From the NCBI GenBank assembly GCA_000004985.1, contig GG738873.1: DNA of 64,000 nucleotides; one strand, written 5' to 3'. Of this stretch, positions 1 through 30,545 are shown piece by piece. How positions within the stretch are numbered: the first letter of the stretch is position 1; the number at the start of each line of letters is the position of its first letter. The notes below the pieces were generated by a model. That model saw nothing but the letters and a program-made list of their open reading frames with translations, was not told the DNA's origin and ran no database searches. The DNA is from Naegleria gruberi. Lineage: Eukaryota. The position numbers and the translations under genes are program-made.

Positions 1-334
1 AACCCAAACCCAAACCCAAACCCAAACCCAAACCCAAACCCAAACCCAAACCCAAACCCAAACCCAAACCCAAACCCAAACCCAAACCCAAACCCAAACC
101 CAAACCCAAACCCAAACCCAAACCCAAACCCAAACCCAAACCCAAACCCAAACCCAAACCCAAACCCAAACCCAAACCCAAACCCAAACCCAAACCCAAA
201 CCCAAACCCAAACCCAAACCCAAACCCAACCCAAACCCAAACCCAAACCCAAACCCAAACCCAAACCCAAACCCAAACCCAAACCCAAACCCAACCCAAA
301 CCCAAACCCAAACCCAAACCCAAACCCAAACCCA
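1..334. repeat. Telomeric repeat tract (CCCAAA)n, about 55 units with two CCCAA variant units near 228 and 290; C-rich strand reads 5'->3' into the chromosome, as expected for a left chromosome end
   Basis: Perfect 6-bp periodicity 'aaccca' from position 1 to 334, then an abrupt switch to unique AT-rich sequence. Confidence 0.9.
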
Positions 335-985
335 TAAGTTAATTTCATATAATAGATTAGACAATTAGAATATCAATGAAAACATTTCAAAATCATTTCA
401 AATCAATATATCACCTTATAAATCATGTTAATAACAATATATATCAATTTCAAATACTTTGGTATCATTTCAGGATATTTACTATTCAACTTGTCAACTG
501 ACCTATTCTAACATTGAAGATAGAAATCTATACCACTTCAATTCACTTCCAATACATCTGTACATGATAATTAAATACATTAATATCATTTTGACATTCA
601 TCCATATTATACATGGTACATGGCTGATCCACTTGATACCTACAGGGATGTGACAATGACATGTACTATACAGATCATCCTGAAATTGATACAGCACCTT
701 ACCAATGATGAATTAACACCACAGTATCAGTTTCGTGACAATTTGAAATCATTCAACTAGTCAGGAGTGTAATCATGGGAATAATGAATATCAAGATAAT
801 GAAATGATATTAATTTTGAAATCTTTCAATTATAGCATCATATATAGATCAATTAATCATGGTATTTCAATAATTGGTATTGACTTTCATATCAATTCAT
901 TCAAACCTTAATGACCTATCCTTAGTTGACCAAGTCAATTTTAAACTATCATGAATCATATAACTATTGATGCCATTGTGTTCAC

Positions 986-3123
986 NNNNNNNNNNNNNNN
1001 NNNNNNNNNNNNNNNNNNNNNNNNNNNNNNNNNNNNNNNNNNNNNNNNNNNNNNNNNNNNNNNNNNNNNNNNNNNNNNNNNNNNNNNNNNNNNNNNNNNN
1101 NNNNNNNNNNNNNNNNNNNNNNNNNNNNNNNNNNNNNNNNNNNNNNNNNNNNNNNNNNNNNNNNNNNNNNNNNNNNNNNNNNNNNNNNNNNNNNNNNNNN
1201 NNNNNNNNNNNNNNNNNNNNNNNNNNNNNNNNNNNNNNNNNNNNNNNNNNNNNNNNNNNNNNNNNNNNNNNNNNNNNNNNNNNNNNNNNNNNNNNNNNNN
1301 NNNNNNNNNNNNNNNNNNNNNNNNNNNNNNNNNNNNNNNNNNNNNNNNNNNNNNNNNNNNNNNNNNNNNNNNNNNNNNNNNNNNNNNNNNNNNNNNNNNN
1401 NNNNNNNNNNNNNNNNNNNNNNNNNNNNNNNNNNNNNNNNNNNNNNNNNNNNNNNNNNNNNNNNNNNNNNNNNNNNNNNNNNNNNNNNNNNNNNNNNNNN
1501 NNNNNNNNNNNNNNNNNNNNNNNNNNNNNNNNNNNNNNNNNNNNNNNNNNNNNNNNNNNNNNNNNNNNNNNNNNNNNNNNNNNNNNNNNNNNNNNNNNNN
1601 NNNNNNNNNNNNNNNNNNNNNNNNNNNNNNNNNNNNNNNNNNNNNNNNNNNNNNNNNNNNNNNNNNNNNNNNNNNNNNNNNNNNNNNNNNNNNNNNNNNN
1701 NNNNNNNNNNNNNNNNNNNNNNNNNNNNNNNNNNNNNNNNNNNNNNNNNNNNNNNNNNNNNNNNNNNNNNNNNNNNNNNNNNNNNNNNNNNNNNNNNNNN
1801 NNNNNNNNNNNNNNNNNNNNNNNNNNNNNNNNNNNNNNNNNNNNNNNNNNNNNNNNNNNNNNNNNNNNNNNNNNNNNNNNNNNNNNNNNNNNNNNNNNNN
1901 NNNNNNNNNNNNNNNNNNNNNNNNNNNNNNNNNNNNNNNNNNNNNNNNNNNNNNNNNNNNNNNNNNNNNNNNNNNNNNNNNNNNNNNNNNNNNNNNNNNN
2001 NNNNNNNNNNNNNNNNNNNNNNNNNNNNNNNNNNNNNNNNNNNNNNNNNNNNNNNNNNNNNNNNNNNNNNNNNNNNNNNNNNNNNNNNNNNNNNNNNNNN
2101 NNNNNNNNNNNNNNNNNNNNNNNNNNNNNNNNNNNNNNNNNNNNNNNNNNNNNNNNNNNNNNNNNNNNNNNNNNNNNNNNNNNNNNNNNNNNNNNNNNNN
2201 NNNNNNNNNNNNNNNNNNNNNNNNNNNNNNNNNNNNNNNNNNNNNNNNNNNNNNNNNNNNNNNNNNNNNNNNNNNNNNNNNNNNNNNNNNNNNNNNNNNN
2301 NNNNNNNNNNNNNNNNNNNNNNNNNNNNNNNNNNNNNNNNNNNNNNNNNNNNNNNNNNNNNNNNNNNNNNNNNNNNNNNNNNNNNNNNNNNNNNNNNNNN
2401 NNNNNNNNNNNNNNNNNNNNNNNNNNNNNNNNNNNNNNNNNNNNNNNNNNNNNNNNNNNNNNNNNNNNNNNNNNNNNNNNNNNNNNNNNNNNNNNNNNNN
2501 NNNNNNNNNNNNNNNNNNNNNNNNNNNNNNNNNNNNNNNNNNNNNNNNNNNNNNNNNNNNNNNNNNNNNNNNNNNNNNNNNNNNNNNNNNNNNNNNNNNN
2601 NNNNNNNNNNNNNNNNNNNNNNNNNNNNNNNNNNNNNNNNNNNNNNNNNNNNNNNNNNNNNNNNNNNNNNNNNNNNNNNNNNNNNNNNNNNNNNNNNNNN
2701 NNNNNNNNNNNNNNNNNNNNNNNNNNNNNNNNNNNNNNNNNNNNNNNNNNNNNNNNNNNNNNNNNNNNNNNNNNNNNNNNNNNNNNNNNNNNNNNNNNNN
2801 NNNNNNNNNNNNNNNNNNNNNNNNNNNNNNNNNNNNNNNNNNNNNNNNNNNNNNNNNNNNNNNNNNNNNNNNNNNNNNNNNNNNNNNNNNNNNNNNNNNN
2901 NNNNNNNNNNNNNNNNNNNNNNNNNNNNNNNNNNNNNNNNNNNNNNNNNNNNNNNNNNNNNNNNNNNNNNNNNNNNNNNNNNNNNNNNNNNNNNNNNNNN
3001 NNNNNNNNNNNNNNNNNNNNNNNNNNNNNNNNNNNNNNNNNNNNNNNNNNNNNNNNNNNNNNNNNNNNNNNNNNNNNNNNNNNNNNNNNNNNNNNNNNNN
3101 NNNNNNNNNNNNNNNNNNNNNNN
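986..3123. other. Assembly gap (run of N); all ORFs crossing it are artefacts
   Basis: 2138 consecutive n characters. Confidence 0.99.
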
Positions 3124-3154: not shown

Positions 3155-3502
3155 TTGGCCATTAATAAAATGGTAATGGGTTTTCGCCATACCCAAACCC
3201 AAACCCAAACCCACACACAAGGGATTTGGATCGAGGATTTTCCATCCCTTCACTACATTCTATCTAAGTCATTTTACAAAAAATCATATAGAAAGCTCAG
3301 CAAGTACATTGACACCTATGGAAGAAAGAGAAGAGGATGGAAGAGATTTGGAAAGAAGAGAATTATCAGAAAGAAGATTGATGTTTATGGAAAGAAGAGA
3401 AGATTTAATAAGAGAAGAATTGACACTTACAGAAAGAAGAATAGAAAGAATAGAAGAGGTGACAAGAAGAATAAGAAAGTTGATATTTACAAGCGTAAAT
3501 AA
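3155..3502 (+). pseudogene. 5'-truncated copy of the polycationic secreted repeat-peptide gene (paralog of 29385-29810). N-terminal and signal-peptide coding is replaced by unrelated sequence and telomere-like repeats. An alternative E/R-rich frame (3309-3506) is also open because the DNA is purine-rich
   Basis: C-terminal 75 aa nearly identical to the right-arm ORF ('YGRKRRGWKRFGKKRIIRKKIDVYGKKRRFNKRRIDTYRKKNRKNRRG.KKNKKVDIYKRK'). Homology to the right copy ends near 3283, so the signal peptide present in the right copy is absent here. Confidence 0.45.
3191..3213. repeat. Interstitial telomere-like tract (about 3.5 CCCAAA units followed by cacacaa) at the outer edge of the left inverted-repeat arm
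   Basis: 'acccaaacccaaacccaaaccca' at 3191-3213, same unit as the terminal telomere; lies about 70 bp outside the point where homology to the right arm stops. Confidence 0.75.
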
Positions 3503-5060
3503 TTGAAACAGAAATCAATTTCTTTAAAAAGTCTAAATTTTTGAATCAATTTTGCTTTTAATAATTATTTAACATTAGAATAAAGTTGTGAGTCTCCATA
3601 AAATTAAGTTTGTTATTTCATTTGTAAAACAATTAAGACGGGAAGCCTGCCAGGAATATGGCGACAATCCCGCTACAGTCTTTGACTGTATGAACAGTGA
3701 AGGCAACGAATCTATTGATTGTTGGTTCAGTAAGTTTGTTGTTCAAAATAAAGTCATTGATCACCATCTATTTATCACTTTTGAATTTGATCTATTTAGA
3801 AAGAGAAACTTGTGGTTGATCAATAAACATTCGGCAATATATAAAAAAATGAAATTTCTCTGTCCAAGTTGAGTTTCACATATTGCTTAGATTAAAAAAA
3901 GACTACAGCACCACAGGTTCCCAAGTTGTCTCCAACCTCAGTACTGATGTGGCTCGACAATGCGGCCGTAGCCATGCATCTTATCAAAATGTGAAAGACA
4001 AATCAAATTCATACAACTCTTTGCTGGAAATATGATGGTAAAATTTGGTTGTTGGGAGAATTGTTGGATATCTTGGAAAACTTTTGGAGTGAAACAATGA
4101 GATGAATAGTAATGTTAGATAACATCCAAGTGATGTATTTATTATTGTCCTGATGAAGATTTATCAAGTAAATAATGAATGAATAATGTTTGGAAGCATG
4201 TGAAAATTCAACTTTATCATCTCTGGAAAATAATCGAAAAACATTGGCAAAACATTCTTTATGATGTGGTACAATAACAAATCTTGTGCCTCTTGAAATT
4301 GAACAAATTTACCAAATGGTGTTTTTCACTTTGATGAAATTAAATTTTACTTTATCTTCTCCAACTCTACATGTGCTTGATGGAAAGTTTTGAAACTTTC
4401 TGAGGTGATGTTAATGAACATTTAGAACATTCCTATCGTGTTCTTATTGTCTTGTCTGATGTTTTTCATGATGAAAATATTAAAATTAATAAATTGATGA
4501 AATTCTATTTCAAGTAAAAGAATGGCATCCATTTTCTTGTTATATTTCTGATGATTATCATCCAATAAAGTGAGTTTTACTTCTCCAATTGAACAAGACT
4601 CGCCATCAATTTAATCATTGCCTTTTAAAATTTGAAATTCATGTTGAAATTTAATAAAATTAATTTCTATACATTCCAAATGATCGTATCATGTTGTGTT
4701 GAAAATGGTTTTGGAAGTGATGAAGAATTGTTTTTGAAAATCATCCATGATGAAACACGTTGCGAATTTGATGAAATTTTTCTTGTTTAATATTTTTTTA
4801 AAATCATCAAATTTCACTCATCACTTTTCTTTCCATATCAAAAAGTCATCAAATATTTTGATGTAAAGAATTAAAGATGAAAAAATTGAGAAAGCCAAGT
4901 AATAATCTAGATGAGCATTAATTTCATTGAATGAGCTTACTTAAGAGAGCCACAATAGGATTAAAAATTGTCATCACAACATCGGTCTCATCAACAAAAT
5001 CATCAACAAAATCATCATCGAGATGAAAGTATTCACATGGAAATGGATGTTTTTCTATTT
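3283..5060. repeat. Left arm of a diverged inverted repeat (partner 27900-29577, roughly 85-90% identity with indels). It carries the basic-peptide gene copy, a 5S pseudogene and about 1 kb of AT-rich non-coding DNA
   Basis: Reverse-complement matches read directly, for example 3981-4040 against 28900-28960, 3902-3960 against 29024-29079, and 4911-5040 against the reverse complement of 27900-28040. Confidence 0.85.
3901..3973 (-). pseudogene. 5S rRNA pseudogene with an internal deletion of about 46 nt (box A region). Helix I ends and the 3' half are retained, followed by a terminator-like A-run on the plus strand at 3894-3900
   Basis: The reverse complement reads 'ggctacggccgcatt|gtcgagccacatcagtactgaggttggagacaacttgggaacctgtggtgctgtagtc'. 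Compared with the intact copy at 28962-29080 it lacks 'atatcacgatgaatgcacctcatcccgtccgatttgagaagttaagcacc'. Confidence 0.8.
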
Positions 5061-5354: not shown

Positions 5355-6959
5355 TTAAACATTATAGGGTTTAGGAACATTTGATGCTTCGAAAAAGTAA
5401 TTGTATGTATTTGCTGCATCAACACCCAATTGATAATTGGTGTTTTTGCCTGTAGCCCAAATAGAGGAAGTACTTGATGATGGAATGAGGAAAGTTCCAG
5501 AATCTCCACAAATAATTTCTGGAAAAGTTCGATCTCCCAATACAGCAACCTTATAGAATTGAGTAAGATCTTCACCATAGTAGGATCCAATGACATATAC
5601 ATTATCCTTAAAGTCAGTGACATAGGTTGTGGTTTTACTTGGAGAGAGGCAAACATTTCTAATCATGAATGGAGTTGGAACTTTTGCTGGCATATGGTAA
5701 GGAACTATTTTAGATTCTCTTCCCAATCTAAAATCACCAGTTCCCCATGAGTAGAGTTTTCCTTCAGTTGACAATGCCATGAAATATTGAGATCCTCCAA
5801 GAATTTTAACAAATTTAACATCTGATGAAACTTGTTTCCAAGTGAATACTGGAGATCCAGTTCCTGTTGAAGCACCTGGGATTCTTGATGTTGTTGTTAA
5901 ATCTCCTAATTGACCAAGAGAGTTATCACCTGTACAGTAAATCAAGCTATTAATATTAGAAATGAAACAAATAGATTTTGGAACTGAGGTCAATGTTGCA
6001 ATAGCTACATCCACAACACCATGGTTCAACCCATCTACAATTGTAGACAATACTCTTGGTCTAGTCCAATGCTCAACTATGGCAGTATATTCAAAAGCTC
6101 CCATAAATAATAATCTACCATCAGTTGTAATCATATAGCATCCATAGAAATTATCATTACACTTAATTTTCTTAATAACTGGAGAAGGAATAACAGCACC
6201 AAAATCTGGGTTTTTCATAATATTGATTGTACCAGCCACATTTGCTCCAAGAGTGTTATCGTAATTATATCCCCAGCCCCAAACTTGTCCATCAGAAGTT
6301 AAAATTACAAAGTTATAGGTAGCCACAGCTTGTACATCCACAACTGTCTTTCCAGCAATTGGAGACATGTCAACAAATCCCACTGTTTTAATAACTCTTG
6401 CAGTCAAGTCGGCAGAATTAAAACCAGCATTTCTGTATGTAGTTTCAAATTTTCCAATAAATAATAAAGTATTGTTGGCCAATAAAGCAACAGTTCCCAT
6501 TTCAGTGGAGGCAAATCTATTCATTCTTATTCCATTATTGTATTGTGCAATAATTTGAGTATCAAGTACCTTGATAGATTCTAGAATAATCTTCTTTTTC
6601 AATTGTAAAGTGTTGGTGTAATTTACCATTTCTTGATATTGAAGACTGAAGGATGATGCAAATTGATCCACATCCTGAGCAGTCACTCCATCAATTTTTG
6701 TGATAAAGTCCTTTCCAGCAGCATCTTGTGCAAAGGAGAGTTGAGAGGCCAAATCCCTCGATGTAATAGCTTCTGCAAGATCTGAATTAATAGTGTCCAA
6801 ATAGGTTGAGATTAAATCCCTCTTTTTGAACAATTCCTCCACTTGCAATTGTTGATTCTTTGAAAAAACCAAATTGACAGGATCGGCACCTTCAACAAAT
6901 ACCAATATTGTACATATTAAGACAGCAATCAACATGCTCACCACTTGTACTCTTTTCAT
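5355..6959 (-). CDS. Secreted protein: signal peptide, about 150 aa coiled-coil-like N-terminal region, and a C-terminal RCC1-like beta-propeller. Single exon, 534 aa
   Basis: Complete ORF from ATG (6959) to TAA (5355). N-terminus 'MKRVQVVSMLIAVLICTILVFVEGA'. Repeated RCC1-type motifs 'GQVWGWGYNYDNTLG', 'IYCTGDNSLGQLG', 'GKLYSWGTGDFRLG', 'IWATGKNTNYQLG'. Confidence 0.8.
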   Translation of the reverse strand: MKRVQVVSMLIAVLICTILVFVEGADPVNLVFSKNQQLQVEELFKKRDLISTYLDTINSDLAEAITSRDLASQLSFAQDAAGKDFITKIDGVTAQDVDQFASSFSLQYQEMVNYTNTLQLKKKIILESIKVLDTQIIAQYNNGIRMNRFASTEMGTVALLANNTLLFIGKFETTYRNAGFNSADLTARVIKTVGFVDMSPIAGKTVVDVQAVATYNFVILTSDGQVWGWGYNYDNTLGANVAGTINIMKNPDFGAVIPSPVIKKIKCNDNFYGCYMITTDGRLLFMGAFEYTAIVEHWTRPRVLSTIVDGLNHGVVDVAIATLTSVPKSICFISNINSLIYCTGDNSLGQLGDLTTTSRIPGASTGTGSPVFTWKQVSSDVKFVKILGGSQYFMALSTEGKLYSWGTGDFRLGRESKIVPYHMPAKVPTPFMIRNVCLSPSKTTTYVTDFKDNVYVIGSYYGEDLTQFYKVAVLGDRTFPEIICGDSGTFLIPSSSTSSIWATGKNTNYQLGVDAANTYNYFFEASNVPKPYNV

Positions 6960-7467
6960 TGTGATGATGATATATGGTCAGTAATTTTTTTAGGGATGAT
7001 GGAATATAAAGGATTGGGGAGGAGATGAGAGGCACAAACAAACGCTCAAGATTTGGCCTCTTCTTTTGGAAAGACGCATCATATCATAGTGGTTATTAGT
7101 GCAAGTGAAATCTTCAACAAGGGCTTCCCAGATAACACACTGAATGGCTTTGTTGTGTGCTGTGCTGTGCTGCAACTATTGCACAATCTTCCACTTCAAT
7201 AGGGCAACCGTTGTTGTTTGTACTCTCGTATACAGCTGGATCACTATTAAGGAAATATTATTTACTGGAATGATTACCTTGAGCGAAACAGCATGGCTTT
7301 TTGTGTCAACACCAAATAGCCTCATTATCCTTAATATGCACGCGCGTTGGCAATCTTTCAACATGCAACAACGCATCTTGATCTTCCTCATCAGTGGTTC
7401 TTTTTTCCTTCTCCTCTCGAATGGCTTGCTTATTCATCAGCTTTATATCATTAAAAAAAACCAAAAG
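6960..7467. promoter_or_regulatory. Shared divergent intergenic/promoter region between the two RCC1-like paralogs (5355-6959 minus strand; 7468-9225 plus strand)
   Basis: The two paralogs are head-to-head with about 500 bp between their ATGs; an A-run 'ttaaaaaaaaccaaaag' sits immediately upstream of the plus-strand ATG at 7468. Confidence 0.45.
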
Positions 7468-9225
7468 ATGTTCTCCAATAGGAATGAATCACATGTCGTC
7501 TCGTACACAATAGTGGCCATGTGGATTGCAATGGTGGTGGGATGTTGTGCCTCTCTAGTGATGGCCGCCTCACCTACTGAATTAATTGTTAGTAAGCAGG
7601 CCATTCAATCACAACTTGCAGCTTTGCAAAAACAATTAACGGATGTTAGATTGGCAAAATATACCTTGTCAGGATTGAAGGAAGCAACTGGAATTATTTC
7701 ATCAAATTCCATTTCTGTCAATGGTGTATCATCTTTGGATGTGGATTCCCTTGGAGCAGAAGTTTCTGATCAATATCAAGAATTGGAAAGACATGAAAGA
7801 TCTGTGTTATTGAAAATGGCAGTTGTTCAAAGAAGTCTTGAAGTTATTACTGTCAATATATCCATGTCTGGATATAATCCAATGCTAAAGAGAATTGCTT
7901 CAAACATATATGGAACAACATACATTGCACCAAATGGAAGTTTATTTTATTATGGCGCAATCAATTCTGCTCTTCTAAATGGAAGACCTGGATACGTTTC
8001 TGGTTCATATATTCAAACTTATCCAACTGCTGTTGACATGTCTCCTTTGGGAGGTGATGTTGTAACTCAAGTTTATGGAGGAAGATCATACTTTTATGCG
8101 GTAACCTCTAAGGGAGACGTATGGCATTGGGGAGGAAATGATGGCACCATTGGTTCAATCTGTTCTTGTGGTCCACAGGCATCAGCTGGTTCTTCATATG
8201 TATTGAGAAAACTTGATTTTGGACTTATTGGTAAGGCCGTTATGTCAAAGAAAATTGTTTGTGATCAATCAATTGATAACAACTACGGTCAGTATGGAAC
8301 CTTTGATTGTTTCATGCTTTCAATGGAAGGGGAGCTTTACTTTATGGGTGTGTGGGTTTTCGACGGTAATAGTGGTTGGTCAATTAGATCAACGTACAAT
8401 TCAAACAAGGTCAGAAAGTTAAAGATTCAAATTAATGGTGTTGAAAAATTCGCATCTGACTTGGCTGTATCTCAAACAGCTGTTCCGGCTTATTCTGCTA
8501 TTGCTGGAGGAATTCTTAGAAATGGTGCTGCTATCTGTGTTATTGACAGAGACAATGCAACCAATATTTATTGCACAGGTGATAACAACGGGTAAGTACT
8601 TCTTTTTCAGTATGATTTTAATCATTTATTTAGTGGTCAATTTGGAGATGGTTCAATTGCTCCAACAAATATTCCATTGACTTTGGATATTGCGTCTACA
8701 AGTTGGGTCGTGGCCAAGACGCAAGCATCGTCTTCAGGTGAGATTTTCTCTCAAATTTATGGAGCCTTGAAAACTCTGTATGCTGTTGGTGCTACAGGTA
8801 AGGTTCACTCATGGGGATCAACTGGTACATTGTTGGCAAGAGTTGCTACCGAATCAAATGCCAAGATTGGTAGAACAACCTTCTCCAGCTATTTTTCAGT
8901 CTCAAAGATTTGCACCTCTCCTGCAACAGACATTGTCTTTTTGGTTAGTTCTGCAAATAATGAGGTATATGTTTTGGGAGCTCTGAATGGAGACAATTTT
9001 GACTATCCTTATCAACCACAAGCATTCAAGGGAAAGCAATTTGTTGATTGTGAAGTCAATGAAAATAATGTGTTTGTCCTCTTTGCTAATGGACAAGTAT
9101 ATGCAAAGGGTAGAAATGATGCTGCACACTTAATGGTTGGTTTCACAACACCTTCAGTTACTGGTAATCTAATGGGATTAGTCTACCCATTGACTGAATC
9201 ATTCATTCCTGTATACTATCAATAA
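7468..9225 (+). CDS. Paralog of the secreted RCC1-like propeller protein. Two exons, join(7468..8591, 8634..9225), with a 42-nt intron 'gtaagtacttctttttcag...atttatttag'
   Basis: ATG at 7468 with a hydrophobic N-terminus ('VVSYTIVAMWIAMVVGCCASLVMAAS'). Motifs 'GDVWHWGGNDGTIG', 'IYCTGDNNG|GQFGDGS', 'GKVHSWGSTG', 'GQVYAKGRND'. The donor gtaagt at 8592 and acceptor tag at 8631-8633 restore the frame; exon 2 runs to TAA at 9223-9225. Same architecture as 5355-6959. Confidence 0.7.
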
Positions 9226-9491
9226 ACCAAAAAGCAACTTTGATACAAAGTCCTTTCGCTGTATTATCATACTGTAATCATGCACCAAAATAAGTCCATT
9301 CCCAAAGGATCAAAACACCCATTCTGTCCATTCATTACTGGACTGTAGTGTTCAATACGAATTTGTAGAGATGCATCCTTAACTGAACTGTTACACAACA
9401 ATATCTTTGCTTAGCAACAATGATAATATTGATCAACGCGGAGATTGTCTTCGTCCTAGCATCAAATCATAAAAAAGACTATTGTTAAACA

Positions 9492-12082
9492 ATGATTTGG
9501 ACACCACTACGCATCAATTTCACTTCATCATTATCATCATTAAGGAATATGAATACATCAAATATCGGTAATAACAATAGAGGAAAAGGAATACAACTCA
9601 CACTAGCTCTCCTCAGCCTCATTGTTCTATTAACCTTATTATTTTGTAATAACATAATTAGTTGCCAAAAACTTCCTTCCCCAACCGATTACTTTTCCAA
9701 AATTCTGCCAAATGTTCTCAAGGACAATAAGAAAACTCTCTCTGCACAAAGAGCTAAGCGTATTGATGAACTATCAAAACTAGCAACAAATTATTTGGAA
9801 ATGGAAGAAATGTTAGAAATTGAGGAAAAGATGCAAATTTCCCAATCGGCCATTCAAGCAAGAAAGACCAAAATTTTCAATATTGCCACTCTTATCAATA
9901 CATTGACCAATGAAGTTCAATTAATTGATAGTTATTGCGAAAATAGACTTGGACAAAACTGCGAAATTCCAACATGTTTTGGAAAATACAAAGATGGTGT
10001 TCAAGTGGTTTGTGGAGGAAATGGTAAATGTACTGATGTCGACACTTGTCAATGTGATAAGGGATACTCAGGAATTGAATGTACATATTATAAATGTTAT
10101 GGAATAATCTCCTCTGACTCTTCCGTTTGTTCAGGAAATGGAGTTTGTGTTTCATCTGACATTTGTAATTGTAGAAAGGGCTTCTTTGGTGGTAATTGTA
10201 GTCAAACAGAGTTCACTGGATACATTATGTATTCAAATGGTAAGAATAGACTGACTGGTACCAATAGTGTTCCAAAAACATGTAGAGAATATTATCTTAA
10301 TTATAGAGAGATGTGCGGCATGTTAATGTGGTACATCAAACATTATGAATTTCAGCTTTTTTTTTGTGTGTATTAATTCATTTCGAATATTCAGCAACAT
10401 TTCGCATATTCAACAGCATAATAAATGTGCGCACTCCATTTTAAACGAAAAACAAGACTTTAGAATGGAAGAAAAGATTCTGAAATTCAGAATGTATTTT
10501 GCATGAAACCAATGGCCTGAATAAAGATTCTGAATGATGGAACAAAGATAATAAATGAATGCTAAAAGCTTCTGAATGAACGTCTATTCAGATTTCCCCA
10601 ATAGTCAACACCTTTTTCTTTACCTACAACGATGGTAGCATGAAATAACTGGTTTATGTTATTAGGAACCTTAGAAAACATAAGTCAAAGTTTTTAATAA
10701 GTCAAAAATTGATTCAAAAATTATGTGTTTGTTGGACTCGGTCTTTAATTTTTGTTTTACGACACCTCACCACATGAGACTTTAATTAATATATGTAAAC
10801 AGTGATTTCAATATACCATGAAATAATCACAGATTCAGTCCTTTTTGTTGTGGAGATAGAAATCAGCGCTTGAATGAATTTTTTTTAATACTTATTTTTT
10901 CCAGGTAATATTTCATTCTTTTAATAGAACAGCATTATTTCATAACCAGACCATTTTCATTGTTAGAAATTCTGTAATATGGAGCAATACTAAACATTTT
11001 ATGAATTGTGTGATCTTCAAAGCTTTTAATCATTTTTTGGATGACTTTAAAAGCATGGGCTCCGAGTTTAACAAATTTGCCTAGAAAAAGAAAAAGAAAC
11101 TTGACCTAAATAATAGATAAGGTTCCGCTCTTTTTACTATAATGTTTCAATATGTGAATGTTTCATAATGTTTTTATTACATATATTTGATTATATCTGT
11201 GAAATATTAACCTATACCATGCTCTCATTACGATGATGTAAACTGAGCTTCTCGATCCCAGTTTTTTATGTTATTTTTTTGGCGGGGTTTTTTCACTCTT
11301 TAATTCATTGTCCATTAGTTATTTAAATTGAGGTTTTTATGAATCAATCAGATAGATTATGAAGCCAATTAACGCAAATATGTTGATCAGGAAAAATCAG
11401 CTCTTTATTACATTAATTGGATCTCTTTAAAGTCACAGGCTCCATTACTTAAAAAATACCGTTAAATAAGGAGTACAAAGATTTCGCATGGATACACAAA
11501 TAGTTTAGAATAAACCACCAATTTAAAAAAAAATAACATCATTCTAATCTGAACACACAGCAACATCTCGCATATTCAAAAACATTCCGAATATCCAATT
11601 ACACTTCGTATATTCAAAAACATTCCGACTACACAACAACATAAAAAAGTAGGATATCACTCTATAACACTGCATTATCTGGCAATGGATTGTATGTTGT
11701 AAAGCCAAAGGATAGAGAGATTACTGTGTATTGTAATATGAATGATGGAGGTTGGACTCTATTGAATGAAATTTTGTACTTGGAATCTCTCCTTAGCTCT
11801 ATTCCTCTCCCTAGTGCTAGTAATCTTCTCTCTGCTGATTTGACAACTTATACACAAAAACCAATAAGATTGACAAGTGTCATTTCATCCAACTTATTGA
11901 AAGATTTTAAGGGAAGTTTCAATACTGTCAAGGCTGGTTTTGGGTTGAGATGTAGTGTGGGAGCTGATGATCCAACCATGGATCCTGTTCTGAACTATTT
12001 GTGCCAAATCAATAATAGAAATGGATTGAATACTTATGTTGCTGCTACCTTTAGTTCATATGTAAAATATTGGCTTTATTAA
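9492..12082 (+). CDS. Membrane-anchored or secreted protein with a coiled-coil, two or three EGF-like modules, and a C-terminal fibrinogen-related-domain-like segment. Exon 1 is 9492 to about 10312 or 10330. A distal exon at 11653-12082 carries the 'GNGLYVVKP..VYCNMNDGGWTLL' part across an unusually long (about 1.3 kb) intron or insertion
   Basis: Exon 1: 'CEIPTCFGKYKDGVQVVCGGNGKCTDVDTCQCDKGYSGIEC...' then 'KTCREYYLNYRE'. The distal ORF is open from 11645: 'SRISLYNTALSGNGLYVVKPKDREITVYCNMNDGGWTLLNE'. The order TCREY..GNGLY..VYC.M..GGW is contiguous in the paralog at 14360-15340. Phase-compatible donors at 10313 or 10331 with an acceptor at 11651-11652. Confidence 0.4.
10378..10420. repeat. 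Two copies of an about 20-bp motif ACATTYCGMATATTCAAMARC at the 5' edge of the long intron/insertion in gene 9492-12082
   Basis: 'tttcgaatattcagcaac' followed by 'atttcgcatattcaacagc'; related copies at 11559-11640. Confidence 0.5.
11559..11640. repeat. Four tandem copies of the same about 20-bp motif at the 3' edge of the intron/insertion; direct-repeat partner of 10378-10420
   Basis: 'acatctcgcatattcaaaaac' / 'attccgaatatccaattac' / 'acttcgtatattcaaaaac' / 'attccgactacacaacaac'. Confidence 0.5.
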
Positions 12083-12166
12083 AAATCAAGATATTTGCAA
12101 TATTTAAATAACATGAAATATCTAATTGCTAAAAAGCAATAGCTGACCAATACCATATTTATTTTG

Positions 12167-13892
12167 TTACAAATAAAGGAAGGACAAGATGATCAAAACT
12201 AAAACAATTAAAACGTTTGGAAGACGAACCAATTGAGCATCATTGACATTTCTTGAAGTAATAGCATCAGGAGTAGTAGTGGAATTTGAGTTTGTGTTTG
12301 AATTGGAATGAGAAGAAACTGCTGGTTTTGGTGAAGAAGTAACTGGGCTAGGCACTTCAACCTTTAACATTTGAACTGAAACAGTTGATTCCTGATTGAC
12401 TCCACTAATTGCTGAAATACTTCCCCAACAATAAGAAGATGGCCAAGCAAATACGTAACTTTGTCCATTATTCAAATTTCCAGTATCAATATTTGAAAGA
12501 TTTCTACAAGCCAAATTCAAATACAATCTAAACTGTCCTCCTCCAGTAGTAACAGCTGTAATATTATACAATTGACCAGCAACTGTTTTGGCCCATGAAA
12601 CTGGTGTATATCCATTTCCATTTCCATTATTCTGAACTGTTCTCACAGTTCTGTTTGAAAAGACTACTGCTTGTCTCCATGTATCGAAATATCCAGCAGG
12701 TCCTCCAGAACCAACTAACCAAGGACCTCTCATGGAAAGTAAATTCTGATTTCTATTAAAATCAATCAACTTGTCCTCACCATTCAAATATCCTGAACAA
12801 GATTTGAGAGGTCTGAGAGCAGCTCTAATGAGTTGCAATTCGTATGCAGCTTGATTACTCCAACCATTTGGATGCAATGTGTAATTACTTCCAATTTCAA
12901 CGAAAATGGCATAAGGTGTGCCAGTATTACGATCAGTGACATAGGCACCGTAAGTTTTCAAAGTTTCTGCAATTTTTCTCAATTTTGGAATAGTAAGTTG
13001 GGCAGAAACGTTAAATGTGGAAGGAAGCATCAATAAACTACCTTCTGGAATAGATCCATAATTGCTTTGATAATCAATGTCAGATACAGTGGCTGGCCAA
13101 ACGTAAGGTGGATTATTGGACAAACCATTGTGAGTCATGGAAAGAGTCAATGCATGTCTATATTGAGAATCGCCATCATCCACTTCATGTTTTCTAATCA
13201 ATCCTGCAGAACTTGCAACCCCTGTGGCTCTGGCTCCTTGATAGAATTGAGCTGGATTTCCCCATCCAGAACCATCGAGAGCTGTCCATGAATAGAGAGT
13301 AGTACACCATGTTCCATTTACTTTGACTAATTGCCAGAATGAGTGAATAACGTTTGAAATTGGATCAAAAATTTCACAGTGACCTATTTCCAAAAATACC
13401 AAATTTGACACATGTCAAAAAAAACTCATTACTTTGACAAGAATGAAAATAAACTTACCATCACTTCCGCTAGCTGGTAAAGTATTGGCTGGCCATCTTG
13501 GAATTGTAATATTTGGAGCAAATCCACCAATATCTGGTACGCCAATTCCCGAACTAGATGAACCATAAACTGTAAGTGGAGAATCAGTTTTTGAGGAAAC
13601 GAAAACTCCAGTAGAAAAAATTCCTTCGGCGACTGTTGGGACAAAGTTCATTGTTGATATTGGAATAGTTTTGGTATCGTCTAAAACTGGGTTGACTGGA
13701 CGACTATTCCAAGGAGAGCTTGCAGAGAATGGTCTGTAAACGCTTCCAAAGGGATAAGCCGATTGGAGGCATGTTGCATGTTGAGAAAACATGTCTAATG
13801 AGAACAGTGTCAATTGTCAAAGCAAATGAAAACTTACAAATTACTGACAGCAACAGCAGAACAGATAATTTAACTGTGAATTGTTTATTCAT
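12167..13892 (-). CDS. Secreted, probably GPI-anchored protein of unknown domain family. Three exons: join(13838..13892, 13459..13794, 12167..13383) on the minus strand, with a signal peptide, a Ser/Thr-rich stalk and a C-terminal hydrophobic tail
   Basis: Exon 1 'MNKQFTVKLSVLLLLSVI' ends at donor gtaagt (13837-13832). Exon 2 runs from acceptor cattag (ag at 13796-13795) to donor gtaagt (13458-13453). Exon 3 starts after 'aaatag' at 13383 and reads 'GHCEIFDP...'. The C-terminus is '...SSPKPAVSSHSNSNTNSNSTTTPDAITSRNVNDAQLVRLPNVLIVLVLIILSFLYL'. Confidence 0.65.
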
Positions 13893-14359
13893 GGCTGTGT
13901 TTGTTTTTTTTGATGTTTCGTTCTAGTAGGCAAAAAATGGCAGTGGTTTACTGCTGGATAAAATGAAAGTATTTGTTATTCTAGCGACATTGTTTTCGAA
14001 TAGGTCATTTTGAAAGGTTCTGTGTAACACAGTTGATGAATTAGTAGAAGAAAATACAAGTTTAGTTTGGCTGAGGTTTGGAAAAGGAAGTGCAAGCGAA
14101 ATAGGGTCCCAACTGGAAGTTTCGAATAGAAAATTTTAGCTATGCCAATCAAAAATCAACAAAATAGTTTAATACAATGGAACAGCTGTTTCTCAACAAA
14201 CACATTCAGACTGGAAGTCTAACCGTTAAATTTTGTAATGACAATATCATCTACTAATCAATTAAGTCCAAGTGTACCTCGTTCAAGAGAAAGTTTACAA
14301 TACATTTATTTGAAAAGTAATGAAAGCTTGAATTATTTTATTAAGAATGTTCTTAAGGT

Positions 14360-15340
14360 TTATCTGATGAAATATTGGAAGAAACTGACAAATTTACCTG
14401 GAGTGGAAAATCCATCAACGGTACACAACTTTTTCATTGTCCTTTCATGATAATCATCAGGATCATATGAAATTGCACATTCATCACCAACCATTGACTT
14501 GACTTGATTAGCCAACTTGATCAATGATCTAAATTCAATTGATTCCACAAGATCTGGAGTGATAGGGGTAATTGGTTGCTTGAAAGGAGTCTCATGATTT
14601 TGAATTCCATTCAAATAAATCCATCCTCCCTTACTCATATCACAATACACTGGAAATGCTGGGAATTCAGCAGAGGGTTTTACAATATACAATCCATTTC
14701 CTGTCTTTCCAACATAAAAATTGGTCAAATACTCTCTACATGTAGTTGGGATATAGTTCGAAACAGAGGTGAGACTTTTCACAATAGATCCATCATACCA
14801 TTGAGTTTCATTGATTGAGAATAAATTTTCAGAGGCCATTTCCTCAGGTTTACACGACTTTCCAGAATTAAGATCAAAACAAATGCACTTAGTACCTGGT
14901 ACATAGTTAAATTGTGTTTGATCTGCTAATAAATCAGCACCATTTCTTCTCTGAGAAAGTACAGCAATGGAAGATCCGATAATTTGTTGTTTCATCAATA
15001 AATCTTGTTCTTGTCGGATGAGGGAAATTAAATCGCTAGTAGCCTTGTCCATGATGGATTGTAATTGAACCTTATCAATATTTAAATTATCAACATAGGG
15101 AGTAATGATATCGTTTGCATCCCTTAATGCCATCACATTTTGTTTCATAATTCTGATATTATCCAATTGATCATCCAATTTATTCTTATACAATTTCATC
15201 ATTGATAATCTATCTGGTTGATCATTATCTTGAAATATACTACCTTGTCCAAAACAACATGTAACTCCCAACAATGATATAACAATAAAAAGGTAGAGAA
15301 ATTCCACCGAGTGATGATGATGATTGAAGAGTTTGTTCAT
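14360..15340 (-). CDS. Secreted or type II protein with a hydrophobic N-terminal segment, about 120 aa coiled-coil, and a C-terminal domain carrying a fibrinogen-related-domain-like motif. Paralogous in architecture to gene 9492-12082. There may be a 33-nt 3' intron (14365-14397) that would shorten the C-terminus to '...FSTPDKP' (stop at 14353)
   Basis: 'MNKLFNHHHHSVEFLYLFIVISLLGVTCCFG', a heptad-rich segment, then 'TTCREYLTNFYVGKTGNGLYIVKPSAEFPAFPVYCDMSKGGWIYLNG', matching the FReD A-subdomain consensus C..Y..G...SG.Y.IKP....F.VYCDM...GGWTV. Confidence 0.65.
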   Translation of the reverse strand: MNKLFNHHHHSVEFLYLFIVISLLGVTCCFGQGSIFQDNDQPDRLSMMKLYKNKLDDQLDNIRIMKQNVMALRDANDIITPYVDNLNIDKVQLQSIMDKATSDLISLIRQEQDLLMKQQIIGSSIAVLSQRRNGADLLADQTQFNYVPGTKCICFDLNSGKSCKPEEMASENLFSINETQWYDGSIVKSLTSVSNYIPTTCREYLTNFYVGKTGNGLYIVKPSAEFPAFPVYCDMSKGGWIYLNGIQNHETPFKQPITPITPDLVESIEFRSLIKLANQVKSMVGDECAISYDPDDYHERTMKKLCTVDGFSTPGKFVSFFQYFIR

Positions 15341-15728: not shown

Positions 15729-16517
15729 TTAGAAGGAAAAGCTCAGGTAGCTTAGTGAGCCAAAGTCATATTGACGAAAGAGAACCTTTCCACTTGTTTC
15801 ATCTTGAGCCATTCCCATGACTATGAAGAGGGGAAGGAAATGTTCACTTCTAGGAATTGCCAATTGATGATGAGGAGCATGCTCACGGTATGAGAAGAGT
15901 TCTTTCAAATTCCATTGTGAAATCTTGTCAATTAGCCAATTGTCAAATTCTTCGGCCCATCTTTCAGTTTTTTTCTTTTTAGAATTGGTTTCCAATAGAT
16001 TGTGAACAGTGCCACCACTTGCAATTACTAATATTTCCATTTCACTCAATTCTTTCAATGCTTTACCTATTTTGAAATGAGTTTCGGCTGAACTTGTTGG
16101 GTCAATCGAGCATTGAACTATTGGAATATTAGAATCTGGAAACATTAGTCCCAAAACAACCCAACTCCCATGATCAAGTCCTCTATCATACTCCCTTCTT
16201 GTTTTTATCCCATTTTGATTCAATTTAGTTTCGACTAATTGTGCAGTTTCGGGCGAACCTTTAGCAGGATACGAAACATGACTCAATTTTGAAAATCCTT
16301 GAAAGTCATGCATTGTTTTATATTCATTTTCATGGAATGAAATGGACACACCTCTATTCTCAATGGATTCTTCCCAATGAGCTGTGAATATGACAATGGC
16401 TTTTGGATGGATTTGTGTGGACAGAGTGGAGAGAAATATGGACATGTTGTGCAGGGGTTGAGCTATGAGGTTGGGAGAACCATGACCTATGAAGAGTGGA
16501 GCAATTCTTGAAGGCAT
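15729..16517 (-). CDS. Extradiol aromatic ring-opening dioxygenase, class III (LigB/YgiD, 4,5-DOPA dioxygenase-like); single exon, 262 aa
   Basis: 'LFIGHGSPNL...IVIFTAHWEE...ILVIASGGTVHNL...' matches the HGSP and SGG(T/S)VHN motifs of the LigB-type dioxygenase family. Confidence 0.8.
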   Translation of the reverse strand: MPSRIAPLFIGHGSPNLIAQPLHNMSIFLSTLSTQIHPKAIVIFTAHWEESIENRGVSISFHENEYKTMHDFQGFSKLSHVSYPAKGSPETAQLVETKLNQNGIKTRREYDRGLDHGSWVVLGLMFPDSNIPIVQCSIDPTSSAETHFKIGKALKELSEMEILVIASGGTVHNLLETNSKKKKTERWAEEFDNWLIDKISQWNLKELFSYREHAPHHQLAIPRSEHFLPLFIVMGMAQDETSGKVLFRQYDFGSLSYLSFSF

Positions 16518-16733
16518 TATTGTTGTCAGTTGTTGAGTTTGATTTTTTTGATGTTTGGCAGGATGAATTTTTCTTTTTGAAATGTTGTAAAAAAATCAAA
16601 ATTGGTTTTTCGGATTCTATTGGATGATGAAACCATCCCGAGAGCAAGCACTAATTTTGTTAAATATATTATCAATATTTTTGTAAACGCAACATTTATT
16701 AAAAATTATTTAAAAATAAATATTAAAAAAATC

Positions 16734-17906
16734 ATGAAGAGCCAAACTTCCGAATCAACTCCAATCATCACCTTCTCATTCCTATCGACAGAATCCGATC
16801 TGGACAAGTGGCTTGATTTTGTCCACTCGATTTTCCGACCAAAAGCCACGAGAGAATATTTCCTTGCTCATCACCTCAATGATCCCAAGGCAAAAGCTTC
16901 CGATATTGTGATTGCTAAATTAGACAATGAAATTGTGGGTACAGTGAAGGTTTTTCATCGATCCATACAGGTACTTGACTCAACAAATGGAAAACAAGGT
17001 GAAAAAGTAGTAAATAATAATGAAGAAATTAATAATGATGAAGAATTAGAAAAGCCGAGCATCGGAATGTGTTCATGTAAGGGAATTGGAGAGGTTGGTA
17101 CGAGAAGTGATTTTAGAGGAAGGGGCATTGCTTCTTCCTTGTTGAATTTGCAGGTGGACAAGATGAAAAGCAATCATGATAATGATGCAATAATATTATC
17201 ATCATTACATGCCTCCACTGATGCCTCTAAACTGTATGGAAAACTAGGATGGAGTGCCATTCCTTTACATTTCTCAAAATTGAAATTTGCATTGAGTAAG
17301 CCAACATGTTCAGCACAAGTGGGAAATAAGGTGGTGAGAATTGAAGTGACCAATTTCAAGAATGAAAATCTTCATGTATTGTATGAAAATTATTGTAGAT
17401 ATTTTGGATTTTTAGGGGTGGAAATTAGATCGGAGGAGTATTGGAATCGATGGGTTGTTCACGAATCGAAAACCCATCAATGTAATTCGTATGCTCTCTA
17501 CGAAAATGATGAGTTGAAGGCTTATATCATTGTTGGGCCTGATGACAAGAATGAGTGTTTGAAAGTGAAGGAGTTTATTTGTGATTATTCTGAAAACTCT
17601 GAGAAACGTCTGGAATATTTCTTTAAACTGATAGACCATGCTCAATCTGAAACTATTGTGGAATTGTCACAAATTTCGGCTATTCTGCCTCGACCAGTTG
17701 CCAAGTTTGTTTTTAACCTTTCTGGAAAAATAGGACAATCTTTGCAAGGTCTTACTCATGCAGGAATATTGGAAGAATATCAAGAATTTTGGTGGACAGA
17801 TAATGGATACATGTACAACCTTGTGAAGAAACCACACGAAAAAAGTACCTTGACTGATTTAATTGAGGAGGAAAAGCATGTCGTGTGGAAAACTGATGGA
17901 TTTTAA
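16734..17906 (+). CDS. GNAT-family N-acetyltransferase domain protein with a C-terminal extension of about 200 aa
   Basis: ATG at 16734 preceded by 'aaaaaaatc'. The acetyl-CoA-binding motif 'VGTRSDFRGRGIASSLL' fits the GNAT motif A pattern (R/Q)xxGxG/A. Confidence 0.7.
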   Translation: MKSQTSESTPIITFSFLSTESDLDKWLDFVHSIFRPKATREYFLAHHLNDPKAKASDIVIAKLDNEIVGTVKVFHRSIQVLDSTNGKQGEKVVNNNEEINNDEELEKPSIGMCSCKGIGEVGTRSDFRGRGIASSLLNLQVDKMKSNHDNDAIILSSLHASTDASKLYGKLGWSAIPLHFSKLKFALSKPTCSAQVGNKVVRIEVTNFKNENLHVLYENYCRYFGFLGVEIRSEEYWNRWVVHESKTHQCNSYALYENDELKAYIIVGPDDKNECLKVKEFICDYSENSEKRLEYFFKLIDHAQSETIVELSQISAILPRPVAKFVFNLSGKIGQSLQGLTHAGILEEYQEFWWTDNGYMYNLVKKPHEKSTLTDLIEEEKHVVWKTDGF

Positions 17907-27473: not shown

Positions 27474-28961
27474 CTTGTGGCGCGACAACGGTTTATCTAC
27501 AGTTGAAGTGTTGGTTGTTCTTTTCTGTATAGTTTGTTATGAGAATTTTTTAAAAGGTGATATTGATTTTTTGGGTTGATATTTGGGTCTCTGTTCAGAC
27601 ATGTTTGAGCGCACTAAGGTGATGGATCACCGAGATCTGGAAAGATACTAAGCGCGAGCCTTATCATGCGTGGATTTTGGTGTGAGGCTCAACAAACTCT
27701 TTCAATTGCTGCATTGTTGTGAATGGTCTAGAATGATAACGTCCACTTCAAAAAAGGTCTATTCATTACAGTGATTACCGTAAATTGAGACACAAATCCT
27801 CACGCAACAACTGTTGCACATCAGCTAATAGCAGCAATACATTTTGATTCAATGGAGAATATTTAAAATTATGATGAATTTGATTTGATCCGAGGGATCA
27901 CGTTGCAGTTTCTCAATTTTTTCATCTAATAATATTTCCATGTGAATACTTTCAATGATGATTTTGTTGATGATCTTTAATCCTATTGTTGCTCTCTTAA
28001 GTCAGCTCATTCAATGAAATTAATGCTCATCTAGATAGATTATTACAATTTTTTCATCTTTAATTCTTTACATCAAAATATTTGACGATTTTTTGATATG
28101 GAAAGAAAAGTGATGAGTGAAATTTGATGATTTTAAAAAAATATTTTAACAAGAAAAATTTCATCAAATTCGCAACATGTTTCATCATGGATGATTTTCA
28201 AAGGCAATTCTTCATCACTTCCAAAACCATTTTCAACACAACATGATACGATCATTTGGAATGTATAGAAATTAATTTTATTAAATTTCAACATGAATTT
28301 CAAATTTTAAAAGGCAATGATTAAATTGATGGCGAGTCTTGTTCAATTGGAGAGGTAAAATTCACTTTATTGAATGATAATCATCAGAAATATAACAAGT
28401 AAATGGATGCCATTCTTTTACTTGAAATAGAATTTCATCAATTTATTAATTTTAATATTTTCATCATGAAAAACATCAGACAAGACAATAAGAAGACGAT
28501 GGGCATGTTCTAAATGTTCATTAACATCACCTCAGAAAGTTTCAAAACTTTCCATCAAGCACATGTAGAGTTGGAGAAGATAAAGTAAAATTTAATTTCA
28601 TCAAAGTGAAAAACACTTTTTGGTAAACCTGTTCAATTTCAAGAGGAGGCACAAGATTTGTTATTGTACCACATCATAAAGAATGTTTTGCCAATGTTTT
28701 TCGATTATTTTCCAGAGATGATAAAGTTGAATTTTCACATGCTTCCAAACATTATTCATTCATTATTTACTTGATAAATCTTCATCAGGACAATAATAAA
28801 TACATCACTTGGATGTTATCTAACATTACTATTCATCTCATTGTTTCACTCCAAAAGTTTTCCAAGATATCCAACAATCCTCCCAACAAGAATATTTTAC
28901 CATCATATTTCCAGCAAAGAGTTGTATGAATTTGATTTGTCTTTCACATTTTGATAAGAAT

Positions 28962-29080
28962 GGCTACGGCCATATCACGATGAATGCACCTCATCCCGTC
29001 CGATTTGAGAAGTTAAGCACCGTCGAGCCACATCAGTACTGAGGTTGGAGACAACTTGGGAACCTGTGGTGCTGTAGTCT
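28962..29080 (+). rRNA. 5S ribosomal RNA gene (about 119 nt), apparently intact
   Basis: 'GGCTACGGCCATATCACGATGAATGCACCTCATCCCGTCCGATTTGAGAAGTTAAGCACCGTCGAGCCACATCAGTACTGAGGTTGGAGACAACTTGGGAACCTGTGGTGCTGTAGTC'. Helix I pairs 5' GGCUACGGC with 3' GCUGUAGUC. The conserved 3' half 'GGTTGGAGACAAC..GGGAAC...GGTGCTGTA' closely resembles Dictyostelium 5S. Confidence 0.9.
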
Positions 29081-30464: not shown

Positions 30465-30545
30465 TGCAGAAGGTGGGATTTGAACCCACGAAGCTTGCGC
30501 AGTAGAACTTGAGTCTACCCCCTTTGACCACTCGGGAACCCCTGC
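30465..30545 (-). tRNA. tRNA-Leu (anticodon CAA) with a long variable arm
   Basis: Minus-strand sequence 'GCAGGGGTTCCCGAGTGGTCAAAGGGGGTAGACTCAAGTTCTACTGCGCAAGCTTCGTGGGTTCAAATCCCACCTTCTGCA'. Acceptor stem GCAGGGG/CTTCTGC, anticodon stem GTAGA/TCTAC with loop CT-CAA-GT, T-arm GTGGG-TTCAAAT-CCCAC, and a variable arm of about 12 nt. Confidence 0.85.

Follow-up and report, generated by a model that had tools for sequence, protein, structure and literature searches.

Introduction

RCC1-like propellers have been studied mostly as intracellular regulators. The members of the RCC1-like domain (RLD) superfamily (RCC1, UVR8, the RLDs of HERC1/2, RPGR and WBSCR16) are cytosolic or nuclear, and have neither a signal peptide nor an N-terminal helical stalk. 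Extracellular RCC1-like propellers are already known, namely Streptomyces BLIP-II, the ectodomain of plant CRINKLY4/ACR4 and the bacterial lectins PLL and CV39L, and so are recognition proteins that consist of a stalk plus a head. Here we describe two adjacent genes of Naegleria gruberi, gene A (NAEGRDRAFT_68480) and gene B (NAEGRDRAFT_80027), which lie head to head in a 64,000-nucleotide stretch of contig GG738873.1. This whole stretch is called the window, and positions are positions in the window unless another locus is named. The two products are probably ancient paralogous proteins of the secretory pathway, restricted to Naegleria, in which a helical stalk carries an RCC1 propeller as a binding head.

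The stalk-plus-head design is that of the angiopoietins and ANGPTLs, FIBCD1, the tenascins, FGL1 and the fibrinogen chains, which have in common a signal or anchor, a helical oligomerising region and a C-terminal binding head. In angiopoietins, FIBCD1 and tenascins the chain oligomerises through this region, and ligands are bound with avidity by the heads. A and B differ from the angiopoietin, FIBCD1 and tenascin type in the head, which is an RCC1 propeller; no C-terminal fibrinogen-related domain is found in either of them. Two neighbouring genes in the window, C and D, together with F1 and F2 of N. lovaniensis, have, on a stalk of the A/B type, a head with similarity to the beginning of a fibrinogen-related domain, and are in this respect like the known proteins composed of a coiled coil and a fibrinogen domain. 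The Naegleria stalk genes are clustered in the genome, as are the paralogous chains of fibrinogen.

Identity between A or B and the RLD superfamily is 14–20%. A and B carry conserved cysteine pairs, and the residues used for Ran exchange or for sensing UV-B are not evident in them. Identity to BLIP-II, ACR4, PLL and CV39L is 6–20%, with scores below those of the canonical RLDs, and none of these proteins has the two-helix stalk. In addition, ACR4 is a receptor kinase and BLIP-II has shortened blades, both unlike A and B. In word-indexed homolog searches, in which neither gene B nor the Naegleria orthologs appeared, the nearest matches from outside Naegleria were secreted bacterial proteins of the 'alpha-tubulin suppressor-like RCC1 family', whose propellers are joined to domains of extracellular type (Big, dockerin, PASTA and Reg_prop). 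These match A and B at 22–31% identity over the propeller only, and lack the stalk. We considered, and rejected, a bacterial origin of the propeller by horizontal transfer, as the matches are weak, are to generic repeats and cannot support transfer, and the data contain no phylogenetic signal for gene transfer with the bacterial RCC1 proteins.

What appears to be new is the combination of an RCC1 propeller with a stalk, the sharing of this stalk with fibrinogen-like genes in a non-metazoan, and the conservation of the divergent pair, including in N. fowleri. Both genes are listed in public databases as uncharacterised proteins. In the library searched, no paper was found that mentions NAEGRDRAFT_68480 or NAEGRDRAFT_80027, and nothing relevant was found on fibrinogen-like proteins of Naegleria.

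Gene models and paralogy

The product of gene A is XP_002676237.1 (NAEGRDRAFT_68480, D2VHX7), named "predicted protein [Naegleria gruberi]" by NCBI, and the gene has no intron. The spliced product of gene B, 571 residues long, is identical to XP_002676162.1 (NAEGRDRAFT_80027, D2VHX8). The two proteins align from end to end in BLASTP, with 27% identity and an E value of 2e-43. No further copy of either was found by tblastn in the 64-kb window.

An original prediction for this DNA had placed both genes, and had described them as paralogs arranged head to head around a spacer of about 500 bp, one of them with a 42-nt intron and the other with none. All of this stands. The open reading frames (ORFs) and the spliced product match the NCBI proteins, the alignment is full-length, the initiation codons at 6959 and 7468 are separated by 508 bp, and the one intron is in gene B, gene A being a single ORF.

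The propeller

Both proteins had also been predicted to end in a multi-blade RCC1-like propeller, to be recognised by the hidden Markov model (HMM) PF00415. Gene A bears this out, with 51.6 bits against a Pfam cut-off of 21.7, and scores 47.6 bits for PF13540 (cut-off 22). Gene B remains under the cut-off for PF00415 itself, at 13.9 bits, but passes PF13540 at 23.2 bits, just above the limit. RCC1 profiles above the Pfam gathering cut-offs are thus found in both proteins, through PF13540 in the case of gene B. The whole-domain RLD model PF25390 gave 97.6 bits for A and 54.3 bits for B, both under its cut-off of 150.

A structure was predicted for gene A using AlphaFold2 with an alignment of 31 sequences. 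The model has a predicted local distance difference test (pLDDT) score of 82.4 and a predicted template modelling (pTM) score of 0.77, and some 28 strands are modelled in the region of residues 149–525; the prediction from the single sequence reached a pLDDT of just 36.5. A Foldseek comparison with the PDB matched the model to UVR8, RCC1, the RLDs of HERC1/2 and RPGR, with E values down to 2.6e-19 and target-normalised TM-scores of 0.7–0.79 over about 400 columns. Because these matches cover complete seven-bladed domains, the head of gene A is predicted to be a closed β-propeller of seven blades. The multi-blade propeller of the original prediction is therefore upheld, by the Pfam scores and by the structural matches of the model of A to RCC1-type domains. 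The likeness of A and B to UVR8 is at the level of the fold only, and neither contains the string GWRHT or GWRH.

The stalk and its relation to the fibrinogen-like neighbours

The stalk that follows the signal peptide is about 115–120 residues long. In the model of gene A it consists of two long helices, residues 27–87 and 94–142, with a six-residue loop between them and a pLDDT of 85–93. It matched no Pfam family even at E≤10, and the stalk profile gave no significant match to PDB sequences. A hydrophobic periodicity of 3.5 residues was significant in three of the four stalks tested, being reached by 3.2% of shuffles for B, by none of 500 for N. lovaniensis A and by 0.8% for N. lovaniensis B. 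In the orthologs, the a/d register is constant over 4–5 heptads at either end of the stalk. A heptad-rich stalk of about 150 residues had been proposed for both paralogs. It turns out to be shorter and to be made of two helices, and the heptads hold for B and for the N. lovaniensis orthologs, but not for A. The label "heptad-rich coiled-coil stalk" is a reasonable one, and by analogy with the stalk-plus-head proteins described above we infer that the stalk acts as an oligomerising spacer.

The same stalk is present in two neighbouring genes that carry a different head. Gene D (14360–15340, minus strand; NAEGRDRAFT_68485) encodes a signal peptide, a helical region and a fibrinogen-domain-like head. 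Gene C, which starts at 9492, encodes a signal or anchor segment, the stalk, two EGF domains identified by Pfam and a fibrinogen-domain-like head. When 533 six-frame ORFs were searched with an HMM made from the stalks of A and B alone, the stalk of gene D was matched with an E value of 0.0027. An hhalign comparison of the six stalks with RCC1 heads and the five with fibrinogen heads gave a probability of 93.9% and an E value of 1.6e-7, over 88 collinear columns. On rerunning the profile comparison, the real score was 43.0. The 100 column shuffles scored 9.7 ± 1.7, with a maximum of 15.8, and the reversed alignment 11.7; as the shuffled and reversed controls score far lower, the similarity is not a generic coiled-coil bias. 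With a merged stalk HMM, the matches in the window were A, B, C and D and no others; four genes matched in the N. lovaniensis locus and three in the N. fowleri locus. This HMM was built from those same sequences, and its value lies in the fact that it found no additional genes. We define a Naegleria stalk-module family by a signal sequence and, after it, the conserved two-helix stalk with the motif (E)xxLxLKxxVLQxSLxLL; A, B, C and D and the matching genes of the N. lovaniensis and N. fowleri loci belong to it.

When the heads of gene D and its orthologs were compared with the PDB, every match was to a fibrinogen-related domain, with E values down to 7.7e-6; the proteins matched were fibrinogen gamma and beta, FGL1, angiopoietins, FIBCD1, tenascins and ficolin. 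The heads are about 130 residues long, and the matched part is confined to about 50 residues at the beginning of the fibrinogen-related domain. The Pfam fibrinogen-domain score in the neighbouring genes is 18.3 bits, below the cut-off of 22. Given that propeller genes and fibrinogen-like genes have the stalk in common, the locus would appear to encode a common-stalk family with interchangeable extracellular heads.

Conservation of the pair in Naegleria

A profile of A and gene B exon 1 was run exhaustively with HMMER against 1.84 billion representative proteins. There were 6172 RCC1-type matches, and only four representatives had a single full-length match that included the stalk: A itself, B of another strain, a protein of N. 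lovaniensis (whose cluster includes N. fowleri), and a protein from an N. fowleri contig. Two scans of metagenomes, with profiles of the stalk and of the whole length respectively, turned up generic RCC1 loci only, and no further members of the family. To judge from the sequences, and within the data searched, the A/B family consists of two genes per genome and is found only in Naegleria.

The pair is again head to head in N. lovaniensis (contig PYSW02000001.1; this locus is called L001 below) and in N. fowleri (locus L002), and in both species fibrinogen-like genes come after it. Beyond these, N. lovaniensis has a giant EGF gene. The C-terminal 938 residues of its product match the window gene at 17928–27488 with 27.6% identity and an E value of 9e-78.

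The setting of the pair had been described as a subtelomeric cluster of surface genes. This is correct for N. gruberi: the start of the window, as read from the sequence, is a chromosome or scaffold end with a terminal (CCCAAA)n array followed by an assembly gap, the pair lies about 5 kb from this end, and EGF, fibrinogen-like and signal-peptide genes are its neighbours. However, the N. lovaniensis pair lies beside PSME4 and about 280 kb from the end of its contig, and the subtelomeric position is therefore specific to N. gruberi and not conserved.

The spliced model of N. lovaniensis A equals the annotated C9374_003927. The annotations of the B orthologs, C9374_003928 in N. lovaniensis and CAG4710854.1 in N. 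fowleri, are too short at the N-terminus. They begin at an internal methionine (MAEVQS and MDEVQS), and the ORFs (L001 9785–10894, plus strand; L002 2232–3293, minus strand) run on upstream for about 55 codons as far as ATGs from which signal peptides are encoded (MKLWSCWCGGFLWALVCLFVCLNAYNSSCFA/ESTAE; here and below a slash marks the predicted cleavage site).

Orthologs from N. gruberi and N. lovaniensis are 27–29% identical. In a neighbour-joining tree, the A-type and B-type proteins are separated in 257 of 300 bootstrap replicates, and this and the gene order together indicate that the A/B duplication is older than the species split; the divergent pair would have been retained from a time before Naegleria radiated. 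In a comparison of N. lovaniensis with N. fowleri, the ratio of non-synonymous to synonymous substitution rates (dN/dS) comes to 0.15 in A and 0.21 in B, from which it follows that both genes are functional and under purifying selection. The constraint is tighter on the propeller (0.13–0.15) than on the signal and stalk (0.20–0.46).

The spacer between A and B

The spacer in N. gruberi has a GC content of 39%, which is unusually high for non-coding DNA; the coding regions in the window have about 35–38%. It contains an open frame of 108 codons (7144–7467, plus strand) in phase with the gene B ATG. This frame was considered as an N-terminal extension of gene B or as a small gene, and rejected. 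A contig from a second N. gruberi strain, which is 98.4% identical over 7073–10160 (locus L003), carries frame-breaking indels of 5, 7 and 1 nt and a stop codon in the spacer, and between the strains the spacer has about four times the divergence of the gene B exons. The spacer is therefore non-coding, its open frame is due to chance, and gene B keeps its annotated start.

The distance between the two ATGs is only 132 bp in N. lovaniensis (L001 9704–9835) and 122 bp in N. fowleri (L002 3294–3415), and these two spacers are largely conserved with respect to each other. They contain an 8-nt inverted repeat, CATTACGG...CCGTAATG. This repeat may be a bidirectional control element. A counterpart is lacking in the 508-bp spacer of N. 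gruberi, and no 9-mer is common to the spacers of all three species.

A and B would be transcribed divergently from a short common spacer. They are thus probably co-expressed, which would make a mixed A/B oligomer possible, and A and B may form such oligomers in the manner of the clustered fibrinogen chains. It could also be that A and B function independently of each other, as monomers or homo-oligomers, and that their head-to-head order is what remains of an inverted tandem duplication, in which case they would neither be coupled in function nor form a heteromer. We regard this as a serious possibility, though not as the probable one. It is favoured by the different spacer lengths (508 bp against 122–132 bp), by the lack of a common 9-mer, and by the low identity of A to B, which is only 27%. 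It has to be set against the fact that the arrangement has outlasted a divergence that left the orthologs themselves 27–29% identical, and that the spacer in N. lovaniensis and N. fowleri, being very short and mutually conserved, fits a single bidirectional control region.

The N-termini, topology and cysteines

Signal sequences were judged using heuristics only (hydropathy, the length of the apolar run and the −3/−1 rule), and six proteins were compared, these being A and B of N. gruberi, N. lovaniensis and N. fowleri. Gene A has an apolar run of 17 residues, with V at −3 and G at −1, which forms the hydropathy peak of the whole protein, and residues 2–22 are helical in the AlphaFold2 model. 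In each of the six proteins, one or two basic residues at the start lead into an apolar run, after which comes a c-region whose residues at −3 and −1 are small; this site is at an aligned position. The predicted cleavage sites are VEG/A (gene A), VMA/A (gene B), CLA/T, CMA/T, CFA/E and CFA/E. In the A proteins of N. lovaniensis and N. fowleri, the apolar run has only 12–13 residues, and the c-region after it is polar, contains proline and has C-x-A; a hydrophobic region of this kind is typical of a cleaved signal and is not long enough for a membrane span. A second hydrophobic segment is absent from all six proteins. Signal-type N-termini, which the original prediction had claimed for both paralogs, are therefore confirmed as far as these heuristics go.

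The cysteines show a related pattern. In gene A numbering, the pairs 331/342 and 437/484 are retained in all six proteins, and the pair 267/274 is present in four of them, with both cysteines gone in the other two. The closely spaced pairs (267/274 and 331/342) each lie on neighbouring strands of the AlphaFold2 model. As the pairs are kept together or lost together, the pattern fits the formation of disulfide bonds in the propellers and an extracytoplasmic protein.

The signal-like N-termini in all six proteins, the pattern of cysteine pairs, and the secreted-type neighbours with the same stalk support an extracytoplasmic location for A and B. This sets them apart from classical RCC1 and RLD proteins, which are cytosolic or nuclear and have no secretory signal. 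On heuristics of this kind the N-terminus could be either a cleaved signal or a type II anchor, in gene B especially, and in both cases stalk and propeller would be lumenal or extracellular.

If the signal remains uncleaved, A and B would be type II proteins of the Golgi, endolysosome, phagosome or cell surface, where they would act as resident lumenal factors, with the stalk as a stem, and not as binding proteins that are released. This seems to us rather unlikely. The apolar runs of B (28 residues) and A (17 residues), with basic residues ahead of them, are compatible with an N-in, C-out anchor, although the n-region of gene B also has E7 and is about net neutral. The architecture would then be like that of FIBCD1 and of Golgi stem-region proteins, and the modelled hydrophobic helix of residues 2–22 runs almost straight into the helix of the stalk. 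But the short runs in the A proteins of N. lovaniensis and N. fowleri, with their polar proline-containing c-region and C-x-A, have the pattern of a cleaved signal, and the −3/−1 rule is obeyed at the aligned position throughout.

It is highly improbable that A and B work inside the cell as RCC1-like regulators of the conventional type, for instance as guanine-nucleotide exchange factors or scaffolds, with an N-terminal tether and a cytosolic propeller, and any classical cytosolic role is unlikely, since, although the top structural matches are all intracellular RCC1-like domains (UVR8, HERC2, RPGR and RCC1), the basic residues before the hydrophobic segment and the cleavage-type c-region argue for translocation of the C-terminal part, the cysteine pairs are kept or co-lost, the stalk is common to EGF- and fibrinogen-like neighbours of secreted type, identity to RCC1 is 17–20%, and the GWRHT motif of UVR8 is missing.

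Proposed function

We propose that the N-terminal signal sequence of A and B would place the rest of the chain outside the cytoplasm, where the protein would be released or, should the signal stay uncleaved, remain anchored in the membrane with type II topology. The next 115 or so residues would form two long amphipathic helices with heptad repeats, and thereby a spacer stalk through which chains may oligomerise. The seven-bladed RCC1-type propeller, presumably stabilised by disulfide bonds, would be presented on this stalk as the head that binds a ligand. The adjacent fibrinogen-domain-like genes, with or without EGF domains, would use the same stalk module. By analogy with known stalk-plus-head proteins, the most likely role would be multivalent recognition of, or adhesion to, the surfaces of prey, substrate or host.

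Several points weigh against this proposal. The alignment used for the structure prediction included canonical RCC1 proteins, which biases the model towards the RCC1 fold. The periodicity in the stalk of gene A is not significant, being reached by 86% of shuffles, and the two helices of the stalk may equally fold back on each other as an intramolecular antiparallel hairpin, with no oligomerisation. The long apolar run of N. gruberi B could be an uncleaved anchor. The number of cysteines in the mature A proteins of N. lovaniensis and N. fowleri is odd. Finally, N. lovaniensis is closely related to N. fowleri, and the pair is therefore conserved in what are effectively two independent lineages.

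A more far-reaching version of the proposal is that Naegleria independently evolved a multivalent extracellular recognition system of the fibrinogen/angiopoietin kind. A two-helix coiled-coil stalk peculiar to the lineage would bear exchangeable heads, an RCC1 propeller in some proteins and in others a fibrinogen-domain-like fold, with EGF domains or without, and A and B would be an obligate hetero-oligomer, assembled through the stalk, that recognises prey bacteria or the surface of host cells, in pathogenic N. fowleri as well. This is speculative, and on present evidence unlikely to hold in full.

Features of the locus and neighbouring genes

The features of the locus are listed in Table 1.

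Table 1. Features of the A/B locus, with positions in the window (aa, amino acids; UTR, untranslated region)
Feature	Position	Strand	Evidence or remark
(CCCAAA)n telomere-type repeat array	1..335	.	direct sequence reading; given as context
Gene A (NAEGRDRAFT_68480), single exon, 534 aa + stop	5355..6959	-	ORF; product 100% identical to XP_002676237.1
Gene A seven-bladed RCC1-like propeller (predicted), aa 148-534	5358..6518	-	
Gene A helical stalk, aa 25-147	6519..6887	-	AlphaFold2 model; homology to gene C and D stalks
Gene A signal-peptide-like segment, aa 1-24 (MKRVQVVSMLIAVLICTILVFVEG/ADP)	6888..6959	-	apolar run, -3/-1 residues, hydropathy
Divergent intergenic region, 508 bp, presumed shared promoter and 5' UTRs	6960..7467	.	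gene coordinates
Gene B (NAEGRDRAFT_80027) exon 1	7468..8591	+	spliced product matches annotated protein
Gene B signal or anchor segment, aa 1-33	7468-7566	+	part of exon 1
Gene B stalk, aa 34-141	7567-7890	+	exon 1; propeller blades 1-4 come after
Gene B intron, 42 nt, GTAAGT...TTAG	8592..8633	+	multiple of three; in-frame stop inside
Gene B exon 2, rest of propeller blades and stop codon	8634..9225	+	
Gene C stalk module	9714..9977	+	merged stalk HMM, E 6.9e-21, gene C being in seed alignment
Gene D stalk module	14837..15244	-	A+B-only stalk HMM, E 0.0027

The terminal repeat array holds occasional CCCAA units, and a short interstitial (CCCAAA)n copy is found at 3191–3213, right after the assembly gap (986–3123). 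A weak 5S-like match of 74 nt is found at 3900–3973 (minus strand; 42 bits, just over the gathering score of 38 bits), at a distance of 4 kb from the telomere repeats. The window also has a complete gene for 5S rRNA at 28962–29080 (plus strand), and a tRNA-Leu(CAA) gene at 30465–30545 (minus strand).

Gene C (9492–12082, plus strand) stops after PKTCREYYLNY near 10308, and resumes with GNGLYVVKPKD...CNMNDGGW at about 11681. The gap of 1.35 kb is non-coding and is flanked by tandem repeats with a 19-nt period, at 10366–10419 and 11551–11642. Either the gene has an intron of unusual length here, or an insertion has disrupted it.

Genes with fibrinogen-like heads are found at 14360–15340 (minus strand) in the window, at 11713–12756 (minus strand) and 12840–13991 (plus strand) in L001, and at 300–1427 (plus strand) in L002. 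Their heads have the motifs C..Y...G..NGLY.V.P and VYCDM..GGW, and would represent a shortened fibrinogen-like fold outside animals.

At 12167–13892 (minus strand) there appears to be a further gene of secreted type, with no Pfam match. It has a signal-like start, MNKQFTVKLSVLLLLSVICKFSFA, a tract rich in Ser, Thr and Asn, and a hydrophobic C-terminal tail, LPNVLIVLVLIILSFLYL, suggestive of a glycosylphosphatidylinositol (GPI) signal or a membrane anchor. A gene for a LigB-type extradiol dioxygenase (15729–16517, minus strand) and one for a GNAT acetyltransferase (16602–17906, plus strand) lie between gene D and the giant EGF gene; both are absent from the syntenic interval of N. lovaniensis.

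Significance

At the level of annotation, the N-termini of two public entries, C9374_003928 and CAG4710854.1, have been corrected. The family is tractable because it is small, under purifying selection and specific to Naegleria, and lends itself to tagging, knock-down and secretome proteomics, and to use as a lineage-specific antigen.

N. fowleri is the agent of primary amoebic meningoencephalitis, and to our knowledge very few adhesins or secreted recognition factors have been described in it. If the proposal made here is correct, a conserved, secreted propeller mounted on a stalk, in an amoeba lineage with free-living and pathogenic members, would add a eukaryotic case to those in which the RCC1 fold serves as an extracellular binding head. 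The shared stalk points further, to an undescribed modular family of surface proteins, with orthologs in N. fowleri among its members.

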